The notes under the pieces were generated by a model. It was not told where the DNA came from. It did not search any database and worked only from the letters and a program-made list of their open reading frames with translations. Shown here one piece after another: positions 16,926 to 57,998 of a DNA stretch of 59,686 bases. The stretch is from the NCBI GenBank assembly GCA_034659915.1, contig JAYEID010000012.1:1-59686 (forward strand), written 5' to 3'. Numbering within the stretch: position 1 is the stretch's first letter; the number at the start of each line of letters is the position of its first letter. Position numbers and translations under genes: made by a program. Source of the stretch: Patescibacteria group bacterium (GTDB lineage: Bacteria; Patescibacteriota; WWE3; JAUXAW01; JAYEID01).

Positions 16926-16971
16926 GGTGCTCTTTCAACGTGCGTCCCGCACAAAGAAGAGCACCTTCTTT
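16926..16971 (+). terminator. hairpin GGTGCTCTT...AAGAGCACC plus TTCTTT
   Basis: 9-bp stem with the inner hairpin GTGCG-TCC-CGCAC, just after the 16912 stop. Confidence 0.55.
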
Positions 16972-16987
16972 AGACCTCCGAGGTCTA
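16971..16987. repeat. AGACCT-stem palindrome (TAGACCTCCGAGGTCTA)
   Basis: Perfect palindrome between convergent genes. Family member of 9266, 17061 and 59419. Confidence 0.5.
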
Positions 16988-17060
16988 TAGACGCTGTCTC
17001 CACGGGCTTAAAGGCGTGGTTCTAATTTAGCCCTTTTCAAACCCATCATTACAAGGTTTT

Positions 17061-17078
17061 TATACCTCGGAGGTCTAG
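17061..17078. repeat. AGACCT-stem palindrome variant (TATACCTCGGAGGTCTAG)
   Basis: ACCTC-G-GAGGT core, 7 nt from the rtcB stop. Confidence 0.45.
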
Positions 17079-17084
17079 GAAGGG

Positions 17085-18254
17085 CTAAGCGATAACCACT
17101 GCGAGGGGGGTGAGGGTAATTTCCATCTTTGCCAAACTTTTTTGGTCTTCAACCACACTTTCAATATCTTTGTACGCCCAGGGGGATTCTTCGGGGATAT
17201 CGCTCTTTTTAGCTTTACCTAGAACTACACCGCGCTCTTTAATGTCTTCCATCACTTCCTGAACAGAATACTTCCTTTTGGCTTCTTTACGGCCCATTGT
17301 TCGTCCGGCACCGTGGGCACAAGACTCAAAGCTATCCGGGGTACCCAAGCCTTTGCCAATATAAGAATTGGTACCCAAACTACCCGGAACAATAACCGTT
17401 TCTCCCTCTCGCGCGCGAATTGCACCTTTGCGGTGAACCCAAACCTCCTTACCAAAATGTTCTTCCAAAGCCGCGTAATTATGGTGGGCATTTAACTGCT
17501 CCCCAAACTCAACCGGACCAAAGGTTTCCTCAAAGATTCTCTTAGCTACCTTCAAAATACGACGTCTGTTTTCCCGAGCAAACTTCATTGCTAACTGCAT
17601 AGCCTGAATATACGCCTGTGCATCTCCTGTTTCCAAATCCAAATAAGCTAAATCCCAATCGGGTAAATCCAAACCTCTCTTTTGGCATTGCTTTTGCGCT
17701 TTCTTATGAAAATGTTCAGCAATTGCGTAACCAAAATGGCGGGAACCAGTATGGACCATTAAAGACACCGAACCTTCATCTGTTTTCAAAACATCCACAA
17801 AATGATTACCCCCACCCAATGTACCCAAAGATTTTTTCGCTCGTTTAACCTCATGCTCCAACTCTGGGGGAAGTAAGTTTTTATCTAAAAACCCGGAACC
17901 AGCCTGGACTTTATCGTGAACACGGAAACCCATCGGCACTGCACGCATAACTTGCCCCGTGAAGTGCTGCAGCTTTTCTTCGGCAGCTTCTGCCGCAGGA
18001 AAATCTGTCGAAACGTAAGCCATCCCGCAGCCAATATCTACCCCCACCGCATTAGGGCAAATTGCCGCCTCCAAGGCCAAAACCCCACCGATGGGCATAC
18101 CGTAACCAATGTGGGCATCGGGCATTAGCGCGGTGTGGTGGTAAGCAGGCAAAAGGTTGGACATATTCCTTGCCTGCTGAAGACAATCTTCTTCCAAATT
18201 TTTGGGATCTGTAAAAACGTAAAGAGGAACTCTCTCGGTATCAATTATTTCCAT
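17085..18254 (-). CDS. rtcB: RNA ligase RtcB
   Basis: 389 aa with the RtcB metal/GMP-site motifs PDAHIGYG, GGGNHF, TGSRHFG, HHNYA, CAHGAGR. Confidence 0.9.
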   Translation of the reverse strand: MEIIDTERVPLYVFTDPKNLEEDCLQQARNMSNLLPAYHHTALMPDAHIGYGMPIGGVLALEAAICPNAVGVDIGCGMAYVSTDFPAAEAAEEKLQHFTGQVMRAVPMGFRVHDKVQAGSGFLDKNLLPPELEHEVKRAKKSLGTLGGGNHFVDVLKTDEGSVSLMVHTGSRHFGYAIAEHFHKKAQKQCQKRGLDLPDWDLAYLDLETGDAQAYIQAMQLAMKFARENRRRILKVAKRIFEETFGPVEFGEQLNAHHNYAALEEHFGKEVWVHRKGAIRAREGETVIVPGSLGTNSYIGKGLGTPDSFESCAHGAGRTMGRKEAKRKYSVQEVMEDIKERGVVLGKAKKSDIPEESPWAYKDIESVVEDQKSLAKMEITLTPLAVVIA

Positions 18255-30092: not shown

Positions 30093-30902
30093 CTACCCAA
30101 CACTAAACTTAAAGATGCTAACCCCTAATAATATAAGCAAAACTAAATATTCAACAATCAAGCGGCTGTTGAGCTTGTGCTCAAAATACTCTCTTTCAAT
30201 TGAAATTCCAACATAGAACGCAGCCGAAATAATCAAACCTCGAAAAAACTGCTCCACGGGGACAAATGCAAAACTAAGAAAAATCTCAAGACAAAGAAAA
30301 GCAATTAGCACTGCGCCAAGAAGAACTCTCCTTTCAAATCCTTTTATCAAAAAGAAAAGAGCGAACGAAAACAGAAATGAGAAAAGAATAACAAAGAAAA
30401 GTTGGAAGATTAAAATCTCCAACCCCTTGAGAAAAACCGTAAAGGAGAAGAAAGATATAATCGTAGTTGCAAGAAAAAGTGTTGTTCGGGCTGGGCGCAG
30501 AAGAGGGATTTCCTCTTCTCTACTCCTTGCAACCTTAAAAATGTTTAAGCTAAGCATCAATGCATAAAAGAAAAAAAGAAAAAATACCACAAACGCAATT
30601 TTAAACCATGTTACTGTATACGGAAAATAATATTGGGTAAGACCTGTACTCAAAACAAAGAAAGTCGGAAAGAGAGAAACAACCAACCAGTAAAAATCAA
30701 AATCTGTTTTTAAAACAAATTTAATTCCCAAAAAAGAGGCAAGGGTAGCAATCCCTATAGAAGCAAGATTATAGGGAAATTCAAAAAAATAAACAAAAGA
30801 AAATAGCAACGAAACAAGAACTGAAAATAAAAAAAAGAGTTGCTTTTTAGAAAATTTAAAAGAAGAAGCCTTATTAATTAAAGTTTGCATTGGTAAATAC
30901 AT
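30093..30902 (-). CDS. hypothetical polytopic membrane protein (269 aa)
   Basis: Phe/Leu-rich with about 8 predicted helices. Confidence 0.6.
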   Translation of the reverse strand: MYLPMQTLINKASSFKFSKKQLFFLFSVLVSLLFSFVYFFEFPYNLASIGIATLASFLGIKFVLKTDFDFYWLVVSLFPTFFVLSTGLTQYYFPYTVTWFKIAFVVFFLFFFYALMLSLNIFKVARSREEEIPLLRPARTTLFLATTIISFFSFTVFLKGLEILIFQLFFVILFSFLFSFALFFLIKGFERRVLLGAVLIAFLCLEIFLSFAFVPVEQFFRGLIISAAFYVGISIEREYFEHKLNSRLIVEYLVLLILLGVSIFKFSVG

Positions 30903-31401
30903 TTTCTACATCCTCATGCTGTTCTAAGATATCGAGCATTTCTTGTACTCTATGTTTTGTTTCTTTGTTTACATCAATATTAAACTGTGGTTCAGATTCT
31001 TTAAAAATATATGCAGTACAACCAGCCTCACCCAAAGAACAATTAAAATTCTCAAAAATTTTCCTAATCTCCGAAAGGGTACGGTTTTTGTTATCGGTCT
31101 CAATTTTAATAAGAAAAGCAACACCACCTGGACCATAACCTTCAAGAACCTGATTCTTGCGTATATAATCGCCTTCTCCAGCTCCTCGTTTTATTGCCCG
31201 CTCAATATTTTCTTTCGGCATGTTATGCTCCTTTGCTTCTTCAATAGCAGATCGAAGCTCAGGATTAAAATCAATATCTTTACCACCCTCTCGTACTGCA
31301 GTAGATATCTGATCTGCAAGTTTTGAAAACAGCTTACCCCGCCGGCGATCCTTCCGTTGCTTTCTATGTTTTATATTTTGCCAATGAGAATGTCCAGACA
31401 T
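30874..31401 (-). CDS. yebC: YebC/PmpR family transcriptional regulator (short form)
   Basis: MSGHSHWQNIKHRK is the canonical YebC N-terminus. The track ORF extends to 31509, but that extension is read from repeat DNA. Confidence 0.8.
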   Translation of the reverse strand: MSGHSHWQNIKHRKQRKDRRRGKLFSKLADQISTAVREGGKDIDFNPELRSAIEEAKEHNMPKENIERAIKRGAGEGDYIRKNQVLEGYGPGGVAFLIKIETDNKNRTLSEIRKIFENFNCSLGEAGCTAYIFKESEPQFNIDVNKETKHRVQEMLDILEQHEDVENVFTNANFN

Positions 31402-31676
31402 AATTAGTAGTAGGCAGTAGTCATCAGTAATCCTCGATCCGCTTTCGGCAGTCATCCTGAAGGAGTCCCGATTTATCGGGACGACTGAAGGATCCCCTGC
31501 AAAAGGCACTGTACAGTAACATCACGGTCGCCGAAGAGGCGACTTCTACCCGTCATTTAAAATTCAAAATCTATTCCCTATTCATTATTTATTATTTAGT
31601 ATTTCGTATTTATTTGGAGCTTCGTATTTCGAATTTTCTTTATTTGTAATTTGTTATTTAGTGTTATTTAGTTATC

Positions 31677-31717
31677 GAGACCTCCAAGGATTAAACAGGT
31701 TAAACCTTGCAGGACTC
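31677..31717. repeat. conserved AGACCT hairpin module of the composite repeat (copy A)
   Basis: GAGACCT-C-CAAGG[loop]CCTTG-C-AGGACTC. The inner stem covaries with copies at 46999 and 55895. Confidence 0.55.
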
Positions 31718-31749
31718 TCAGGTCCGATTCTCCAGTTACGAGTTACGAG

Positions 31750-31773
31750 TCCCTGCCGGCCGGCAGGCAGGTC
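31750..31773. repeat. P1-type GC-rich palindrome (CCCTGCCGGCCGGCAGGCAGG)
   Basis: Other members at 47650, 51497 and 55861. Confidence 0.7.
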
Positions 31774-31843
31774 CAGTCTCTTATCTTTTATTCCTTAACT
31801 CTTATTTCTTATCTCAGCTCAACTTCGTCTTTTTTTTTCTTCC

Positions 31844-36887: not shown

Positions 36888-37967
36888 CTAGGAAATAAAC
36901 TTGTCCGCCTTTTCAGCACATTCTTTGCACATAGTTGCTGCAGGATAAGCTCGAAGTCTTTGAGGATCTATCGTCTTGCCGCATCTCTCACATTCGTGGT
37001 AATTTCCCCCTTGCAACCTACTTAAAGCCTTGTCAATTTGGCTACCAAATCGATGCAAAAAATCAGACATTACCTCTACATACTCATGACTTAGAAGCTC
37101 CTCAGCCTCATCACCACTTTCAGCATTATCATCTTCTCTCCCTTCCCTAAAAAATTGATCACCCTGCCTAAGTTGGGTTGTTTCTTTCATAATCTCGTCC
37201 TTCTCGCTTCTTAGCCAATCCCGCAGCTGATTAGATATATCCTCAAGACTTACCTTCTCCTCTTCCCCAAATTTATCCTTACCACTCAGCACACGGTAAC
37301 CCAACAACAAACCACACACTACCATAACAGAAGAAGCTGCCTTTTGAAAAGTAAACAAGCTATCCCCTGAATATAAACTATAAAAATCAAAAACTAAACT
37401 AACTAAGCCCGACCCCACCAAATAAAAAGAAGTTAATGCACCTACCCTAACAGATCCAAAGAGGTTAAAGAATCGCTGCCGCTCAACAACCAAAGCAAGC
37501 ACGAAAAGAACTATATACGCCAAAATTTCAACCCAAATGTGAGGAACAACTAAGCGAGATACCAAAACACCAACAGACCCAAAAGCCTGTCCCAATAAAA
37601 GAGGGGGAACAGCTAAGTCAGCTAGCTTTAGAACAGACCACCCCTTACGCCTAACAAAAAGGTAAAAAGAACCGGCACCAAAAGCAAAACCACCAAGAAA
37701 ATTTAACCCCGAGCCCAATGAACGAAAAACGTCGCTCCAATTGCTCTTAAAAACTGAAAAGTTTATAGCAATAAAAACCAACCTTGCCCCAAAAATTCCA
37801 GCTACAAGACTAATTAAAGAAAGGTCCAATATCTTCTCTTCATCAAAACCCTCTTCCCTAGCCCGCTGCCAAAAAAGAAAAGCTCCCAAAAATACCCCTA
37901 GAGCTAGAAGAATTCCCTGGTAATAAATTGTTACTGGTCCAAGATGTAGAAAAACGGGATCAATCAT
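36888..37967 (-). CDS. fusion: Lgt-like (prolipoprotein diacylglyceryl transferase-like) membrane domain plus C-terminal DksA/TraR C4 zinc finger
   Basis: The N-terminus GPVTIYYQGILLALGVFLGAF...LVAGIFGARLVFI is Lgt-like. The C-terminus IDKALSRLQGGNYHECERCGKTIDPQRLRAYPAATMCKECAEK is the DksA/TraR finger. Confidence 0.65.
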   Translation of the reverse strand: MIDPVFLHLGPVTIYYQGILLALGVFLGAFLFWQRAREEGFDEEKILDLSLISLVAGIFGARLVFIAINFSVFKSNWSDVFRSLGSGLNFLGGFAFGAGSFYLFVRRKGWSVLKLADLAVPPLLLGQAFGSVGVLVSRLVVPHIWVEILAYIVLFVLALVVERQRFFNLFGSVRVGALTSFYLVGSGLVSLVFDFYSLYSGDSLFTFQKAASSVMVVCGLLLGYRVLSGKDKFGEEEKVSLEDISNQLRDWLRSEKDEIMKETTQLRQGDQFFREGREDDNAESGDEAEELLSHEYVEVMSDFLHRFGSQIDKALSRLQGGNYHECERCGKTIDPQRLRAYPAATMCKECAEKADKFIS

Positions 37968-38302: not shown

Positions 38303-38390
38303 TGGTGCCGCGGGAGGGATTCGAACCCTCACGGAGGGTGGCTCCAGCGGTTTTTGAGACCGCCCTGTCTGCCAATTCCAGCACCGCGGC
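38303..38390 (-). tRNA. tRNA-Leu (anticodon CAA), CCA encoded
   Basis: Minus strand reads GCCGCGGTG...CTCAAAA (anticodon loop)...long variable arm GGAGCCACCCTCCGT...GGGTTCGAATCCCTCCCGCGGCACCA. Cloverleaf checked by hand. Confidence 0.9.
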
Positions 38391-40499: not shown

Positions 40500-40625
40500 A
40501 GTTACCAGTTTCCGGTTTCTTCTTTCTTATTCGTAGTATATTCGTTGTACGAATAGAATTTATACCTTAATTATTCGCAATGTATTCGCTATCCCAATGC
40601 TTACTACTAACTACTGATTACTAAT
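40500..40625. repeat. composite repeat fragment, copy E (ATTCGN word array)
   Basis: CTTATTCGTAGTATATTCGTTGTACGAATAGAATT..CCTTAATTATTCGCAATGTATTCGCTATCCC matches the reverse complement of 55660-55860. Confidence 0.6.
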
Positions 40626-46633: not shown

Positions 46634-47218
46634 AGCGGGCTAAATCTTAACATAAAACAAGTAAATTGTCAGCTATTAGCTATCAACAACCACTCGTCAC
46701 TCTGCGGTCCAATCCGCCCTCCGCTTTCCGTACACCGCGATCATCCTGAAAGAGTTCCCGATTCAATTTAGCAGTCATTCTGAGCCGAGCTTCCAGCGAG
46801 GCGAAGAATCCCCTGCAATAAACTGCAACATCGCGGTCGATTCTTCGTCGGTTTAAGAAAACCTCCTCAGAATGACTTCTAGCCGTCATTTAAAATTCAT
46901 CCCCTATTTCCTATCTCTTATTCATTATCCCTTATTTATTATTTATTATTTCTTTATTTGTTTGGAACTTGGAATTTGTAATTTGTTATTTAGTTATCGA
47001 GACCCGAAGGGACGTACCCTACGCCTGCCGTGTACTCTACGTAGTACTGCGGTGGTGCTGTTCTCCAAGGACTACATCCGTAGACCCCTGGGGTGTGCCG
47101 TATGGTACTACCCTTGCAGGTTCTCTTAGGTTCCAGTCCCTTCCTCCCAATTCACATGAATTTGCTATTATTAAATTCGCAACGTATTCGCTATACTAAT
47201 TCGCATTAATTAGCTATT
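46634..47218. repeat. composite intergenic repeat, copy B
   Basis: Colinear with copy A. Contains a roughly 103-nt nested hairpin (GTCATTCTGAG 46774-46784 / CTCAGAATGAC 46866-46876, inner CGAAGAATC/GATTCTTCG). Also contains an ATTCGC word array at 47160-47215. Confidence 0.75.
46999..47125. repeat. AGACCT hairpin module with a roughly 100-nt insertion in the loop (copy B)
   Basis: GAGACC-CGAAGGG...CCCTTG-C-AGGTTCTC. The loop includes ACCCCTGGGGT (47084-47094). Confidence 0.45.
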
Positions 47219-48352
47219 TCAAATCTTAAACTCAACCACATCACTATCGTGGACAATATAATCTCTCCCACGCACATCAATAATTCCCTGTTCCTTTGCA
47301 GCTAACCACGAACCAGCCTCAATCAGCTCTTGGACTTGAACAACTTCTGCCCGGATAAAATTCTCGGCAAAATCACTATGCACAATTTCAGCTGCCCGCA
47401 AAACAGAAGAACCCTTCTTAATTGGCCAAGCACGAACAATCTCCCCTCCCTTAACAGTGTAGAAAGTAATCAATTCCAAAAGATTATAGCAGCCGCGGAT
47501 TACCTTATCCAAAGCAGACTCCGAAATACAAACCCCCTCTAAGTACTCTTTCCTTTCTTCCGGCGTAAAATCCGCTAAATCCTCTTCCAACTTGGCACAA
47601 ATGGGGATGGCCGAAGATAGGCTACCGCATTCCTCAGCCTCAGGAGCTAGACCTGCCTTGCCGGCAGGCAGGTCCGCAGAAGCCCCTGGGGCTTCTCCTG
47701 CAGCAGCCTCGTCTATATTGGCCACCACCAACTGCGGCTTCATAGTTAATAAATTCAAATCCTCTATCGCCTCTTCCTCTTCTTCTGTAAGCTTTGCTTC
47801 CACAGCCAATCTCCCCTCCTCCAAAACCTTTGACACCTTCTCAACCGCCCTCTTTTTTATTGTTTCTCTCTTATTTACATTTCCTTTTTGGAACTTGGTC
47901 CGCCGGCCGGCGGATTGGATTTGGAATTTCGAAATCCTCTCTAAATCTTTGAGCAACAACTCCGTATTAACTGTTTGCAAATCCTCCGCAGGATCAGCAC
48001 CACCTACCCTTTCCACACCCTCGCCTTCAAAAGCACGAACCAAATGCAACACAACATCCACATTTCTGATATGAGAAAGAAATTCATTGCCCAGACCCTC
48101 ACCCTCATGTGCACCTTTGACCAAGCCAGCTATATCCACAAACTCAATAGCAGCAGGTATTTTTTCTTTTGGATTTAAAACTTCTGCAAGCTGGTCTAAA
48201 TGCTCGTCTTTTACTTCCACCACCCCCACGTTCGGCTCAATCGTACAAAACGCGTATGGAGCGGTATTAGCCACACTACGACCAAGAAGAGCATTAAAAA
48301 GTGTTGATTTTCCAGCATTAGGAAGCCCTACAATTCCTACAGATACATCCAT
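47219..48352 (-). CDS. ychF: redox-regulated ATPase YchF carrying repeat-derived segments
   Basis: [27 protein letters not shown]-terminal TGS-like [13 protein letters not shown]...FIRAEV. Confidence 0.92.
47650..47674. repeat. P1 palindrome inside ychF (GACCTGCCTTGCCGGCAGGCAGGTC)
   Basis: Translated in frame as DLPAGKAGL. Confidence 0.8.
47678..47696. repeat. P2 palindrome inside ychF (AGAAGCCCCTGGGGCTTCT)
   Basis: Perfect 9-1-9 palindrome, translated as GEAPGAS. Confidence 0.8.
47900..47913. repeat. P3 palindrome inside ychF (CCGCCGGCCGGCGG)
   Basis: Flanked by TTTGGAACTTGGT and ATTGGATTTGGAATTTCGAAAT, strings otherwise seen only in the intergenic composite repeats. Confidence 0.75.
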
Positions 48353-50994: not shown

Positions 50995-51247
50995 AACTAT
51001 ATAATAACATAGGAAAGGTAAACCATGGGAACATAGAACAAAAAACATGAGAAGAGACTGAAGACAAGAGACTAGTAACAAGAGATAAGAAATAGAAAAT
51101 AATACGGAAGAAATTACAAATCACATCCGCCGGCTGGCGGATCAAGTTCCAAAAACGAAAAATAGAGAATAAGAAAAAAAAATCAACAAGAGGTAACTTC
51201 AAACTTTGAGCAAAAAGTAGTCAACAACAAGCAAAAAATCTGTATCC
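50995..51247. repeat. composite intergenic repeat, copy C (inverted relative to A/B)
   Basis: AAATTACAAAT[CACATCCGCCGGCTGGCGGAT]CAAGTTCCAAA is the reverse complement of the TTTGGAACTTGG..ATTTGTAATTT block of copy B, with a P3 palindrome inserted. Confidence 0.65.
51127..51140. repeat. P3 palindrome variant (CCGCCGGCTGGCGG)
   Basis: One mismatch from a perfect palindrome. Sits in copy C. Confidence 0.7.
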
Positions 51248-51928
51248 CTAAAATTCTGTGCGTCCCTCAAAAGCGTGGGAAAGTGTTACCTGGTCAGCAT
51301 ATTCTAAATCCCCTCCTACCGGCAAACCTTTAGCAATTCGAGTAATCTTTATATTCAGCGACTCTAACTGCTCTTTTATATACATTGCTGTTGATTCCCC
51401 CTCCATCGATGGGTTAGTAGCAATAATTACCTCGGAAATCCGCTCATCGCTTTCCGATTCATCGGCCGCAGCAGGAGAAGCCCCAGGGGCTGGGGAACCT
51501 GCCTTGCCGGCAGGCAGGTGCTGCGGGCTATTTTTCACGCGGTCCACCAATTCATTAATCTTCAAATCTTCAGGACCAATATTATTAACAGGCGAAATAA
51601 CACCATGTAGAACATGATAGAGACCTTTATAATCAGTAGTACCCTCTACCGCCAAAACATCCAACGGGCTTTCAACTACACATATAGTTGATTTGTCCCT
51701 ACCCGAAGAGCGGCAAATTTTACATGGGCTCTCCTCATCAACACTAAAACAAATTTCACAAAGAACAGTCTTCTTTCGCAACTCAAACAATGCCTCAGCT
51801 AACAAGTCCACTTCTTCTTCAGGAACATAAAGAAGATAAAAAGTCAGCCTTTTTGCTGTCTTTGGTCCTATACCAGGAAGCCTTTGCAATGCGTTTATTA
51901 AATTTTGTACTGGTTTTGGTATTTCCAT
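51248..51928 (-). CDS. recR: recombination protein RecR with a repeat-derived in-frame insertion
   Basis: LPGIGPKTAKRL (HhH), C4 zinc finger CEIC..CKIC, Toprim EVIIATNPSMEGESTAMYI. Confidence 0.92.
   Translation of the reverse strand: MEIPKPVQNLINALQRLPGIGPKTAKRLTFYLLYVPEEEVDLLAEALFELRKKTVLCEICFSVDEESPCKICRSSGRDKSTICVVESPLDVLAVEGTTDYKGLYHVLHGVISPVNNIGPEDLKINELVDRVKNSPQHLPAGKAGSPAPGASPAAADESESDERISEVIIATNPSMEGESTAMYIKEQLESLNIKITRIAKGLPVGGDLEYADQVTLSHAFEGRTEF
51474..51491. repeat. P2 palindrome inside recR (GGAGAAGCCCCAGGGGCT)
   Basis: Translated as part of [10 protein letters not shown]. Confidence 0.75.
51497..51519. repeat. P1 palindrome inside recR (ACCTGCCTTGCCGGCAGGCAGGT)
   Basis: Identical 23-mer to the ychF copy. 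Translated as HLPAGKAGS. Confidence 0.8.
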
Positions 51929-55485: not shown

Positions 55486-55860
55486 GTGTACTAAATTACA
55501 CCTCCTTATTAAAAAAACTTTTAAACTTAAAATAAATTCTGTCGCTTAAATTTTACACTTTTACAACAAGGTAAGCAAATTATGCCCAAAAAGAAAAAGG
55601 CTTCCCTACAGGAAATAAACAGGTCAAACCTCAACTCCTCCCTATATGAAAAGAAAAATTGGGATAGCGAATCTATGCGAATTGATATAGCTAATTTATG
55701 CGAATTTAACAGTAGCGAATTAATGCGAATTAGTATAGCGAATACGTTGCGAATTTAATATAGCGAATCTGTTACGAATAGTTAAGGTATGAATTCTATT
55801 TATGCTACGAATTGACTACGAATACTACAAATATACTACGAATAAGAGAGAAGAAACTGG

Positions 55861-55881
55861 ACCTGCCTGCCGGCAGGCAGG
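55861..55881. repeat. P1 palindrome (ACCTGCCTGCCGGCAGGCAGG), perfect 20-bp core
   Basis: CCTGCCTGCCGGCAGGCAGG is its own reverse complement. Confidence 0.8.
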
Positions 55882-55894
55882 CACTCGAACCTAA

Positions 55895-55934
55895 AAGACC
55901 TGCGGGGTTTCGGAATCGAATCCCCGGAGGTCTT
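55895..55934. repeat. AGACCT hairpin module (copy D)
   Basis: AAGACCT-G-CGGGG[TTTCGGAATCGAAT]CCCCG-G-AGGTCTT. The inner stem is CGGGG/CCCCG where copy A has CAAGG/CCTTG. Confidence 0.6.
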
Positions 55935-56069
55935 GGTAGATTGCAGAAAGAAGATAAGAAATAGTAAATAGGAGATAAGGGATAAGGGATAGGAGATAAA
56001 AATAAATTACAAATGACAAATGCGGAGAGTGGGGTGCTGTACATCGTACGCGGAATACGGACACCCGAT

Positions 56070-56083
56070 CCGCCGGCCGGCGG
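56070..56083. repeat. P3 palindrome (CCGCCGGCCGGCGG)
   Basis: Identical to the ychF copy. Confidence 0.75.
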
Positions 56084-56294
56084 AGGCGGACGAAGCTCCA
56101 AATAAATACGAAATATTAAATAAGAAATAATAAATAATGAATAATGAATAAGAAATAAAGGGAGGTGGAAAATAATTGCTTATTGTTAATTGCTGACAGC
56201 AGAATGCGGATATCTAATTACTAGTTACTAATCACTAATTACTTACTACTTACTACTCGCTAATTACTAGTTACCAGCTGCTAACTGCTTACCA

Positions 56295-57998
56295 CTAGTT
56301 ACTTCTATTAAGTAGTAACGTCAATCCATCAACACCCGTTACTTTCTCCTCATCCTCTCCTCTCTTCTTAACTTCAACCCCACCATCCTCCAAAGAACGC
56401 GAACTTACTATCACCCGCCAAGGAATACCAATAAGATCTGCATCAGCAAGCTTTTCTCCCGCAGACTGTTCTCGGTCATCATAAAGAACTTCAATATCAG
56501 CTTCCTGCAATTTGTGGTAAACATCTTCCGCCACACCAACCACCTCGGAATCTTCCTTATTTAGATCCAAAAGATGAACCTTATAAGGAGCCACGCTTTC
56601 TGGCCAAATTATACCTTTCGCATCGTGGTGAGTTTCTACCACAGTAGCCATTGCCCGCCCTATTCCAATACCATAAGCGCCCATCCACATTGGTTTTCCC
56701 TCACCATTCTCGTCAACAAAATAGCCGCGGTGGGGCTTAGTATAAAAGAGATCCTGCTTAAAGCAATGGCCAAATTCTATACCCCTTTTCTTTTCCAGCT
56801 TGCCGTGTTCGCAACGAGGACAGAGTTTACCTTCCTCTGCCATAACAATATCTGCAAGAATCTCGTACTCAAAATCACGACCATAATTAACATTAACAGA
56901 ATCTGTCTCTTCTTCCTTTTGTCCCCCAATAAAGTTCTTAACTTTTGTTAATCCCAAATCTCCAATATAAGTAACACCCTCTATCCCCCAAGAATGCACG
57001 TACCCAGGCTTTGTCCCAATTTTGGCTAAATCCTCAGGCTCTGCTGGTTCCAAAGCAGCCACACCCAAAACACGGCGGAGCTTAGCTTCATTTACTTCCT
57101 GATCGCCACGAATAGAAGCAACCACCAAATCCCCATCAGAAGTTTTGTAAACAACATTTTTCAAATATTTATAAAGAGGCTCCCCATAATGTCTAACATT
57201 ATCTTCCATTGTCTTTACCCACTCTGGTTGTTCAATAATCTCAAATGGCCTTTCCTCTTCATCTAAGTTAATTTCTTCCCGTCTAAACTCAGCTCGATCC
57301 TCACTTGCTGCGTAATCACAAGAATTGCAAGTAAAAATTGTAGATTCTCCATCCTCACACAAAACAATAAACTCGTGGTTGTAGTCCCCACCGATAGCAC
57401 CACTCTCAGCTTCCACTGGGACTGGGTCTAGATCAAGCTTCTCTGCAATCCGTAAGTACGCATTATAAAACTTTTGGTAAACTTTCAACGCTTGCTCCTC
57501 GCTCTGACAAAGTGAGTAGGCATCTTTCATCATAAACTCCTTCACCCGTAATAACCCACCGCGGGGGCGCTTTTCATCACGAAACTTACGACTAAATTGA
57601 TAAATTAAAATAGGCAGATCTCTATAACTAGGAGAAAATTTTTTAACCAACTCCACCATCATCCCTTCAGCAGTAGCACCAATTGCAAACTGACTACCAC
57701 TATGATCCTCTGTCAAAAACATCTCTCCTCCAAAAGCAGTATCGCGACTAGTAACTTTCCAAATTTCAAGCGGATGTAAGGTGGGTACTACTAAACGCTG
57801 ACAACCAATACGATCCATTTCATTTTCTATTACTGCTTGGATCTTTGTCCAAACCCTCATTCCAAGAGGAAGAAAAGAGTAAAAGCCTGAAGCTGCTTGC
57901 CGAATAAACCCCCCTTTGTAGAGAAGTTTATGGCTAGGAACAGAAACATCCCGGGGAACAGTCTTTGTTGTTTTTCCAAAAAGATTTGAATATCGCAT
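56295..57998 (-). CDS. proS: proline--tRNA ligase (bacterial type with editing insertion)
   Basis: 567 aa. Class II motifs FRDEKRPRGGLLRVKEF and GAYGIGIGR, plus an anticodon-binding C-terminus. Confidence 0.92.
   Translation of the reverse strand: MRYSNLFGKTTKTVPRDVSVPSHKLLYKGGFIRQAASGFYSFLPLGMRVWTKIQAVIENEMDRIGCQRLVVPTLHPLEIWKVTSRDTAFGGEMFLTEDHSGSQFAIGATAEGMMVELVKKFSPSYRDLPILIYQFSRKFRDEKRPRGGLLRVKEFMMKDAYSLCQSEEQALKVYQKFYNAYLRIAEKLDLDPVPVEAESGAIGGDYNHEFIVLCEDGESTIFTCNSCDYAASEDRAEFRREEINLDEEERPFEIIEQPEWVKTMEDNVRHYGEPLYKYLKNVVYKTSDGDLVVASIRGDQEVNEAKLRRVLGVAALEPAEPEDLAKIGTKPGYVHSWGIEGVTYIGDLGLTKVKNFIGGQKEEETDSVNVNYGRDFEYEILADIVMAEEGKLCPRCEHGKLEKKRGIEFGHCFKQDLFYTKPHRGYFVDENGEGKPMWMGAYGIGIGRAMATVVETHHDAKGIIWPESVAPYKVHLLDLNKEDSEVVGVAEDVYHKLQEADIEVLYDDREQSAGEKLADADLIGIPWRVIVSSRSLEDGGVEVKKRGEDEEKVTGVDGLTLLLNRSN

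Follow-up and report, generated by a model that had tools for sequence, protein, structure and literature searches.

In-frame palindromic hairpins in ychF and recR of a Patescibacteria group bacterium and a 21-nt unit found across bacterial phyla

In a Patescibacteria group bacterium, the genes for the ribosome-binding ATPase YchF and for the repair protein RecR each carry, in frame, a pair of GC-rich hairpins that are here called P1 and P2. Both genes lie on contig JAYEID010000012.1, all 59,686 nucleotides of which were analysed and are referred to as the window. The inserts occupy tolerant loops of the two proteins, and the core of P1 is a 21-nt palindrome that recurs unchanged in several bacterial phyla. 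We consider the hairpins to be probably, though by no means certainly, selfish or neutral palindromic passengers maintained in frame, with the composite of recR having been copied locally, in inverted form, into ychF. The segment 47630-47708 of ychF would then be a composite of two GC-rich hairpins, consisting of translated passengers and containing no functional domain.

The window has a GC content of about 41%, and its minus strand holds most of the genes, including the open reading frames (ORFs) of ychF (47219-48352, 377 aa) and recR (51248-51928, 226 aa). Both are essential genes. They are separated by cysS and a gene for a C39-type peptidase, a gene order that is the same in relatives. 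The best match of YchF among solved structures is 1jal (E 3e-82), and its Pfam families are MMR_HSR1 and YchF-GTPase_C; RecR matches 3vdp (E 6e-65) in two blocks.

The hairpin inserts and the loops that carry them

In ychF the P1 palindrome GACCTGCCTTGCCGGCAGGCAGGTC occupies 47650-47674, with its core 21-mer, CCTGCCTTGCCGGCAGGCAGG, at 47652-47672 on the plus strand. The recR copy is found at 51496-51520 (core 51498-51518, plus strand), 3846 nt away. The 23 inner nucleotides of the two copies are identical (47651-47673 and 51497-51519), and only the two end bases differ. Strand orientation, frame and the next base (T) are the same in both genes, and on the coding strand the core is read as LPAGKAG, which forms residues 228-234 of YchF and 138-144 of RecR. 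In 100 dinucleotide-preserving shuffles no P1 match was obtained, even with up to 3 mismatches allowed. The predicted fold of P1 is a 9-bp stem (-16.4 kcal/mol, z -4.1). Two further forms are present between genes of the window: a perfect 20-nt palindrome, CCTGCCTGCCGGCAGGCAGG, at 55862-55881, and a variant, CCTGCCGGCCGGCAGGCAGG, at 31752-31771, which is preceded by AGTTACG heptamer words.

P2 of ychF, AGAAGCCCCTGGGGCTTCT, is a perfect 9+1+9 palindrome at 47678-47696 on the plus strand, a 19-nt unit folding into an 8-9-bp stem. A preliminary description of this DNA had placed P1 at 47650-47674, followed by this perfect palindrome; both the coordinates and the sequence are confirmed, and its reading of a common orientation and frame for P1 is exact at the peptide level. 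It had also taken P1 and P2 to be the same in the two genes, which holds for P1 but not for P2. The recR counterpart of P2, at 51476-51494, is an imperfect, weaker palindrome with 3 mismatches. What the genes share instead is a 28-nt module, which takes in 15 nt of non-palindromic flank and is inverted between them: 47681-47708 and the reverse complement of 51464-51491 are identical at 26 of 28 positions. Together with its asymmetric flank, P2 spans 47678-47708 (plus strand) in ychF, where the module encodes 10 residues (YchF 216-225). The P2-type module of recR, at 51464-51494 (plus strand), comprises the shared stretch and the imperfect palindrome and encodes 11 residues. In both proteins the palindrome core is read as APGAS.

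On the plus strand P1 precedes P2 in ychF, whereas P2 precedes P1 in recR, in agreement with the order given earlier. The entire ychF composite measures about 58 nt. The coding strand of ychF aligns with the template strand of recR through the module, the spacer and P1, so that the composite is inverted between the genes except for the asymmetric centre of P1, the orientation of which is kept. Exact P1 and the module occur at no place in the 59.7-kb window other than ychF and recR, where they are 5-8 nt apart each time.

Comparison with orthologues and solved structures supports the earlier view that these segments are in-frame inserts. Residues 7-133 and 161-225 of RecR align to 3vdp, while the 27 residues 134-160 are unmatched; since the chain of 3vdp is continuous at its residue 147, they represent a clean insertion in the Toprim domain. 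They are missing from the RecR of basal Microgenomates (about 198 aa), and at this point the RecR of every one of the closest relatives has an insert of its own. In YchF the only hypervariable part of an otherwise well-conserved alignment is the linker from the NxxE (G4) strand to the CAK (G5) strand, and it varies strongly even among the closest relatives. The AlphaFold model of YchF (mean predicted local distance difference test score, pLDDT, 83) has no secondary structure for residues 219-244 and pLDDT values below 50 for residues 223-242. Alignments, solved structures and the AlphaFold model thus place both inserts in hypervariable, disordered surface loops.

The relatives also give information on the order of events (L-numbers denote loci or stretches from other genomes or from viral contigs). 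In the ychF loop, L121 has the hairpin TCCCGACTTGTCGGGA, L122 has ATCCTGAATCAAGTTCAGGAT and L123 has none. In the recR loop, both L122 (recR at 907-1734) and L123 (4089-4757) carry the palindrome CCCAGAACCTGGTTCTGGG, read as PEPGSG and aligned with PAPGAS of the window. Because these two loci have it at the aligned position, a palindrome at the recR site predates the window lineage. The P2 module in recR is probably ancestral, and P1 in recR is new, later than the palindrome there. The recR gene of L122 also has a hairpin nested within a hairpin, CGTCAGATCCTGAA...TTCAGGATGACG.

P1 as a 21-nt unit in other genomes

In a collection of 596 Gb of genome sequence, the exact 21-mer was found in at least 120 genome stretches, as against 0.27 expected under a uniform-base model; the copy counts given below are among the matches listed. 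The chance accumulation of generic GC-rich hairpins in such a collection was considered and is ruled out by two permuted control hairpins, which gave 0 matches in the viral collection described below. With these copies elsewhere, the two variants in the window, and an Ala/Gly/Pro-rich segment that is not conserved in the YchF alignment, shared ancestry of the peptide in YchF and RecR, which the preliminary description had thought unlikely, is excluded.

The titles of the records with the 21-mer name at least seven phyla: Patescibacteria (many classes), Bacteroidota, Ignavibacteria, Omnitrophota, Planctomycetota, Nitrospirota and Spirochaetia. Third-party metagenome-assembled genomes (MAGs) titled 'uncultured Candidatus Saccharibacteria' or 'uncultured Gammaproteobacteria' (L123/L135, L137, L139, L141) were not counted, as their titles look unreliable, given that the nearest relatives of YchF and RecR from this Microgenomates-like window are found in them. 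Cultured carriers include Aequorivita vladivostokensis KMM 3516, Marinoscillum furvescens DSM 4134, Arenibacter, Hyunsoonleella and Croceitalea. No cyanobacterial record was present among the 80 titles listed per scan. In a viral collection the 21-mer occurs in 7 stretches and the perfect 20-mer in 35; the two permuted controls, of the same make-up, had 0 matches there. The history of the P2 module is different. Its 21-mer gave 3 matches in the 596 Gb, all in high-GC Actinobacteria and at chance level, which rules it out as a widespread element and indicates that it is lineage-specific, while P1 is a pan-bacterial 21-nt unit.

P1 has the form (CCTG)2CC/GG(CAGG)2 with one extra pyrimidine. Among the matches listed, about 61% have T as the extra base, 25% have C, 9% have G and 5% have A. 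The 21-mer corresponds to 7 codons and contains no stop in any of the six frames. Its flanks are unrelated between loci, and with 81% GC it is an outlier in host loci that have a median GC content of 40%. The base 3' of P1 is a pyrimidine in 123 of 132 listed copies (93%), in coding and non-coding DNA alike, while the 5' side of the same 132 copies has T at -2 (46%) and C at -1 (42%) and shows no mirror preference. This asymmetry implies that P1 is directional. Frequent flipping of P1 around its stem, as a cause of LPAGKAG in both genes, is weakened by the same observation. At 12 loci P1 is embedded in a period-7 array, the two sides of which come into phase once exactly the 21-mer is removed, 21 being 3 x 7.

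Elsewhere P1 is usually present in one copy per 8-kb locus. On the viral contigs L128 (632-673) and L130 (2003-2044) two 21-mers stand head to head with no spacer and form a 42-nt super-palindrome. On the viral contig L285, ARAGORN calls a 92-nt tRNA-Met at 2239-2330 in which the perfect 20-mer makes up the long variable arm; a 20-mer near position 8616 of L262 has the same arrangement, though ARAGORN called no tRNA there, and another near position 515 of L292 lies in an apparent D-loop, again with no tRNA called.

Of 123 listed P1 copies, 67 are located in open frames of at least 150 codons. The LPAGKAG frame is used by 36 of these 67 (p = 5e-12) and the mirror reading, LPCRQAG, by 4. Hosts confirmed by Pfam are MurB, TsaD, FolD, LeuRS, an IleRS-like protein, a histidine kinase, NamZ and a multicopper oxidase; in FolD the copy lies exactly between the two domains. 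The orientation of P1 relative to GC skew shows no replication-strand bias (58 of 117 copies overall, 10 of 21 non-coding ones), so the orientation bias reflects coding context or translation and not replication. For the 20-mer a coding preference is not interpretable in its viral contigs, which are GC-rich and commonly have long open frames.

Some hosts carry more complex arrangements. The leuS gene of L073 (172-2670, a Komeilibacteria MAG) contains P1 twice, once in each orientation; the copy near residue 32 is read as LPAGKAG and the one near residue 750 as LPCRQAG. Among 16 GT4-type glycosyltransferase ORFs near P1, with the family judged by sequence motifs, 6 carry P1 themselves. P1 variants lie at ORF positions 124-240 in the GT4-like ORFs of L016, L037, L077, L093, L119 and L225, and in some copies heptamer-derived words continue in frame on both sides, as in ISNI-PASPAGR-QYPISNIK.

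The most direct view of gain or loss comes from namZ of Aequorivita, represented by L063 (A. vladivostokensis), L296 and L297 and covering cultured and uncultured species of the Aequorivita group. The seven residues encoded by P1 are present, in some cases point-mutated, in 5 of 15 orthologues, and exactly these seven are missing in the other 10. At the DNA level a filled site reads GGGAA-[21-mer]-AAAGAAAGAT and an empty one GGAAA-AAAGAAAGAT, a difference of exactly 21 nt. No target-site duplication is present at the filled site, and no repeat in the flanks of the 132 listed P1 copies. Two Aequorivita-group species whose NamZ proteins are 79% identical have an identical 21-mer, while flanking synonymous sites have diverged, and sister species hold mutated descendants of the insert (NLPAGKTG, NLSEGKAG, NLPVGKAG). 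In one protein cluster the insert is seen on 15 contigs from several sources. The patchy distribution in namZ points to repeated gain at one site or to precise loss.

These findings bear on two explanations in which P1 would not be a moving unit at all. Palindromes can be perfected by intrastrand templating, and the hairpins could have arisen in place by template switching or quasi-palindrome correction, their similarity being a convergence on stable GC-rich hairpins; the many different hairpins at the same loops in relatives would agree with this. However, convergence hardly accounts for at least 120 stretches that agree over all 21 nt, the asymmetric extra T included, when two permuted hairpins of equal composition gave 0 matches, for an 81% GC unit in loci of about 40% GC, or for filled and empty sites that differ by the whole unit at once, and we regard local de novo origin as very improbable. 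The other explanation is an artefact of library preparation or metagenome assembly, in the form of a chimeric join or an adapter-like hairpin. The window is a contig of metagenome type with a single occurrence, and hairpins can cause chimeras. Yet both host reading frames are open, the flanks are unique, and the 21-mer is found in the genomes of cultured isolates, on the 15 contigs of one protein cluster and, as mutated descendants, in sister species, which leaves an artefact with next to no credibility.

Possible origins of the composites

We propose that P1 acts as a discrete 21-nt unit that would enter and leave DNA without target-site duplication. Owing to its length, it never shifts the frame. 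Selection would then retain those copies that lie in tolerant loops and are read as the harmless LPAGKAG, a filter acting on length (a multiple of three), frame and loop. In the lineage of the window, P2 would already have resided in the RecR Toprim loop of the clade when P1 arrived beside it. The P2 module could subsequently have been copied, inverted, to the other side of the P1 of ychF, 3.8 kb away. The likeliest route would be ectopic repair or gene conversion in which the self-complementary arms of P1 act as primers, as such copying would explain how an inverted flank can be combined with a P1 centre that is asymmetric and not inverted.

Local ectopic copying is favoured by the strand alignment of the composites, by the near-absence of the module elsewhere, by its joint occurrence with P1 at two sites, and by a second inverted pair in the same region. 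This pair involves an older in-frame insert of ychF at 47860-47930 (minus strand), with the hairpin TCCGCCGGCCGGCGGA at 47899-47914 and TTCCAAA-type words around it. It encodes 14 residues (YchF 142-155) at the tip of a helical hairpin, in a loop that the AlphaFold model places between helices 121-149 and 161-178 with a pLDDT of 57. The DNA of the insert is conserved in L121 and L122 but missing from L123. An inverted copy is present at 51110-51180 (plus strand) in the recR-cysS spacer, with the hairpin ATCCGCCGGCTGGCGGAT at 51125-51142, and the two 71-nt stretches are 79% complementary. No such copy is present in the corresponding spacers of the relatives. The ychF member of this pair is the ancestral one.

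Several observations weigh against passengers that were copied from recR to ychF. The spacer between P1 and the module is 5 nt in one gene and 7-8 nt in the other, which means that copying, if it occurred, was either old or imperfect. The directionality of P1 is tolerated but not predicted by arm-primed copying. The closest relatives are only 62-70% identical, the species-representative genomes having none above 62%, and the boundaries of the inserts in the window are for this reason ones that we infer. No transposase, reverse transcriptase or REP-associated tyrosine transposase (RAYT; REP, repetitive extragenic palindrome) is found among the classified ORFs of the window (Pfam; 40 scanned, 12 hitless). 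Neither is any protein family enriched beside P1 in about 170 loci, where the only recurrent neighbours are glycosyltransferases, kinases and tRNA synthetases; lacking a linked mobilising gene, the proposal has no machinery to point to. Finally, at the recR position aligned with 51476-51494 of the window, the palindrome varies between relatives through double substitutions that preserve base pairing, CCAGAACCTGGTTCTGG versus CCAGCCCCTGGGGCT (AA/TT to CC/GG), and the structure itself could be under selection.

The last point leads to the idea that the hairpins serve the host, either as RNA or DNA structures (a translational pause, an RNase site, a protein-binding site, or a methylation or restriction site) or through LPAGKAG and APGAS as a flexible linker. 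Besides the double changes in recR, the strong bias for the LPAGKAG frame agrees with a function, as do the GCCGGC and CCWGG centres, which would suit a methylation or restriction site, the predicted stability of the ychF composite on the mRNA strand (-33.7 kcal/mol, z -3.5), and the 21-mer that stayed unchanged in two Aequorivita-group species. However, the recR composite folds no better than shuffled sequences (z -1.5), and purifying selection against Cys/Arg-rich readings explains the frame bias equally well. The inserts are missing from most orthologues and replaced by unrelated hairpins in close relatives, and the 21-mer is distributed over unrelated proteins and positions, spacers and heptamer arrays, with its 20-nt form even in a tRNA variable arm. 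Such a distribution argues against host function, which we consider improbable.

A more serious alternative is that four independent insertions took place, P1 and P2 each entering both loops and hairpins landing beside hairpins, with no copying between the genes. The equal orientation, frame and following T of P1 in ychF and recR are as expected for directional insertion, and the difference in spacer length fits separate events. P1 is also often located beside unrelated hairpins in other loci (L010, L019, L027, L036, L038, L059), and the relatives have repeatedly gained different hairpins at the same two loops. What is hard to reconcile with this scheme is the module. It matches at 26 of 28 positions, includes 15 nt of non-palindromic flank, is found nowhere else in the window and is near-absent from 596 Gb. 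P1 and the module moreover meet only at these two places in 59.7 kb, at a distance of 5-8 nt, which for unlinked events is very unlikely unless targeting was extremely tight. We therefore think independent insertion unlikely, though less so than a host function. The preliminary description had named independent insertions or gene conversion as the options left once shared ancestry is set aside; of the two, we lean towards copying between the genes and give separate insertions less weight.

The wide distribution of P1 admits a bolder interpretation, which we offer tentatively and with more doubt than confidence. P1 may represent a so far undescribed class of 'nano-element', a directional 20-22-nt palindrome that is identical across phyla and in some viral contigs and that spreads horizontally. 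Heptamer arrays, tRNA variable arms and protein loops would be its landing sites, entered with no target duplication through a sequence-specific process encoded away from the element. Candidates for such a process would be a widespread host or phage enzyme acting on hairpins of single-stranded DNA, or a templated repair polymerase working in 7-nt steps. The Ala/Gly/Pro loops of YchF and RecR would in that case be footprints of the smallest mobile DNA known to cross phyla.

If P1 is mobile as we propose, 21 bases can act in their own right as a unit of genome change throughout a large part of the bacteria, adding seven residues per event to essential proteins such as YchF, RecR, MurB, TsaD, FolD and LeuRS without breaking them. 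It would provide a concrete and testable source of the low-complexity loops and length variation that are common in proteins of candidate phyla, and annotators and users of structure prediction should be aware that such loops can be repeat-derived. The question raised is which machinery writes an identical 21-mer into unrelated genomes, and the cultured Aequorivita strains with filled and empty sites make it accessible to experiment.

Other repeats of the window and comparison with known systems

The hairpins of ychF and recR are part of a larger set of repeats. An intergenic copy of the older ychF hairpin TCCGCCGGCCGGCGGA is present at 56069-56084, and heptamer-like words flank both this hairpin in ychF (47899-47914) and the P1 variant at 31752-31771. 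The spacers 31400-31830, 40511-40598, 46640-47216 and 55650-56310 share a mosaic of short modules, made up of AT-rich word repeats (TTATTTA, ATTCGC(A/T)A and TTACTAG types) and GC-rich hairpins and without a match in Rfam. With Rfam 15 at the gathering threshold the whole window gave only a tRNA-Leu (38306-38390), and the hairpins and repeat-rich spacers were unmatched. Two 48-nt stretches among them, 47169-47216 and 55713-55760, form an inverted repeat with 98% complementarity that begins two bases past the stop codon of ychF. Next to rtcB (17085-18254) there is an inverted repeat at 16971-17077, built on TAGACCTCCGAGGTCTA and TAGACCTCGGAGGTCTA, with a GC-rich hairpin of similar style. Two ORFs have an unusual structure. 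A yebC-like one (30874-31509) matches only positions 5-55 of a 160-position C-terminal Pfam model and reaches with its first 40 codons into the mosaic of repeats; it may be a truncated gene or one with a wrongly assigned start. In the other (36888-37967), a prolipoprotein diacylglyceryl transferase represented by its first half only (positions 1-132 of the 240 in the model) is joined to a C-terminal DksA/TraR zinc finger, which may reflect a fusion or two genes read through as one.

Among the described bacterial repeats, REPs tagged with GTAG or CGTC are GC-rich stem-loops of 20-40 bp that are mostly intergenic, although some are wholly intragenic and translated, and many of the intragenic ones are found in replication and repair genes (Di Nocera et al. 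2013, PMC3733652). P1 (21-25 nt) and P2 (19 nt) are likewise short stem-loop palindromes, and recR is a repair gene. However, P1 has no GTAG/CGTC tag, its ends being CCTG and CAGG, and no such tag occurs in the flanks of the 132 listed copies. It is low-copy, with 2 exact copies and 2 variants in the 59.7 kb of the window. REP families are species- or genus-specific, whereas P1 is identical across at least seven phyla, and no RAYT was seen among the classified ORFs of the window or as a recurrent neighbour of P1 elsewhere.

The Rickettsia palindromic elements (RPE), a subject of work by Ogata and colleagues in 2000, are reportedly about 100-150 bp long and confined to Rickettsia. They resemble the present inserts as selfish palindromic DNA lying in frame in conserved protein genes, translated, and tolerated at the protein surface. 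The differences are in size (21 nt for P1, 19-28 nt for P2, about 58 nt for the ychF composite), in the multi-phylum distribution of P1, and in the host, here a Microgenomates-like bacterium of the candidate phyla. The small dispersed repeats (SDR) of Nostoc/Anabaena are said, after Elhai and co-workers (2008), to measure about 21-27 nt, to include some hairpins and to reach high copy numbers. They share with P1 the gain or loss of the whole unit without target duplication, seen for P1 at namZ, and nesting in tandem heptamer repeats, seen for P1 in 12 loci, and in other repeats. SDR are described from few cyanobacteria, while P1 was found in records named for at least seven other groups, and the likeness considered here is one of size and behaviour. 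By analogy, SDR would be the nearest known system to P1 in size and behaviour.

Yeast mitochondria harbour mobile GC clusters and 'byp' elements, GC-rich hairpins that invade AT-rich genomes including coding regions, where byp is bypassed by the ribosome. P1 and P2 are comparable as GC-rich hairpin units within coding regions, but the yeast elements are organellar and byp is skipped. Judged from the sequence, P1 and P2 are in effect multiples of three and open in frame, so that read-through translation seems a simpler reading than bypass. Miniature inverted-repeat transposable elements, or MITEs, such as the QMITEs of Coxiella and the enterobacterial RU elements inside ORFs, can also add peptides to proteins (PMC5896051, PMC2759123). 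Like a MITE, P1 is a small non-autonomous repeat that adds a peptide to its host protein; unlike MITEs, which are 50-500 bp long with terminal inverted repeats and a target-site duplication, it is a single 21-nt hairpin that leaves no duplication. Full-text literature searches for P1, as DNA and as the peptides it encodes, gave nothing but unrelated papers on zebrafish. Searches by concept led to work on REP, RPE, MITE and HIP1 and to nothing on the P1 unit or on bacteria of candidate phyla, and a 2025 survey of REPs does not mention the P1 sequence. Intragenic palindromes as such are thus already known; a 21-nt unit that recurs verbatim across phyla would be a wider phenomenon, and one that is possibly new.

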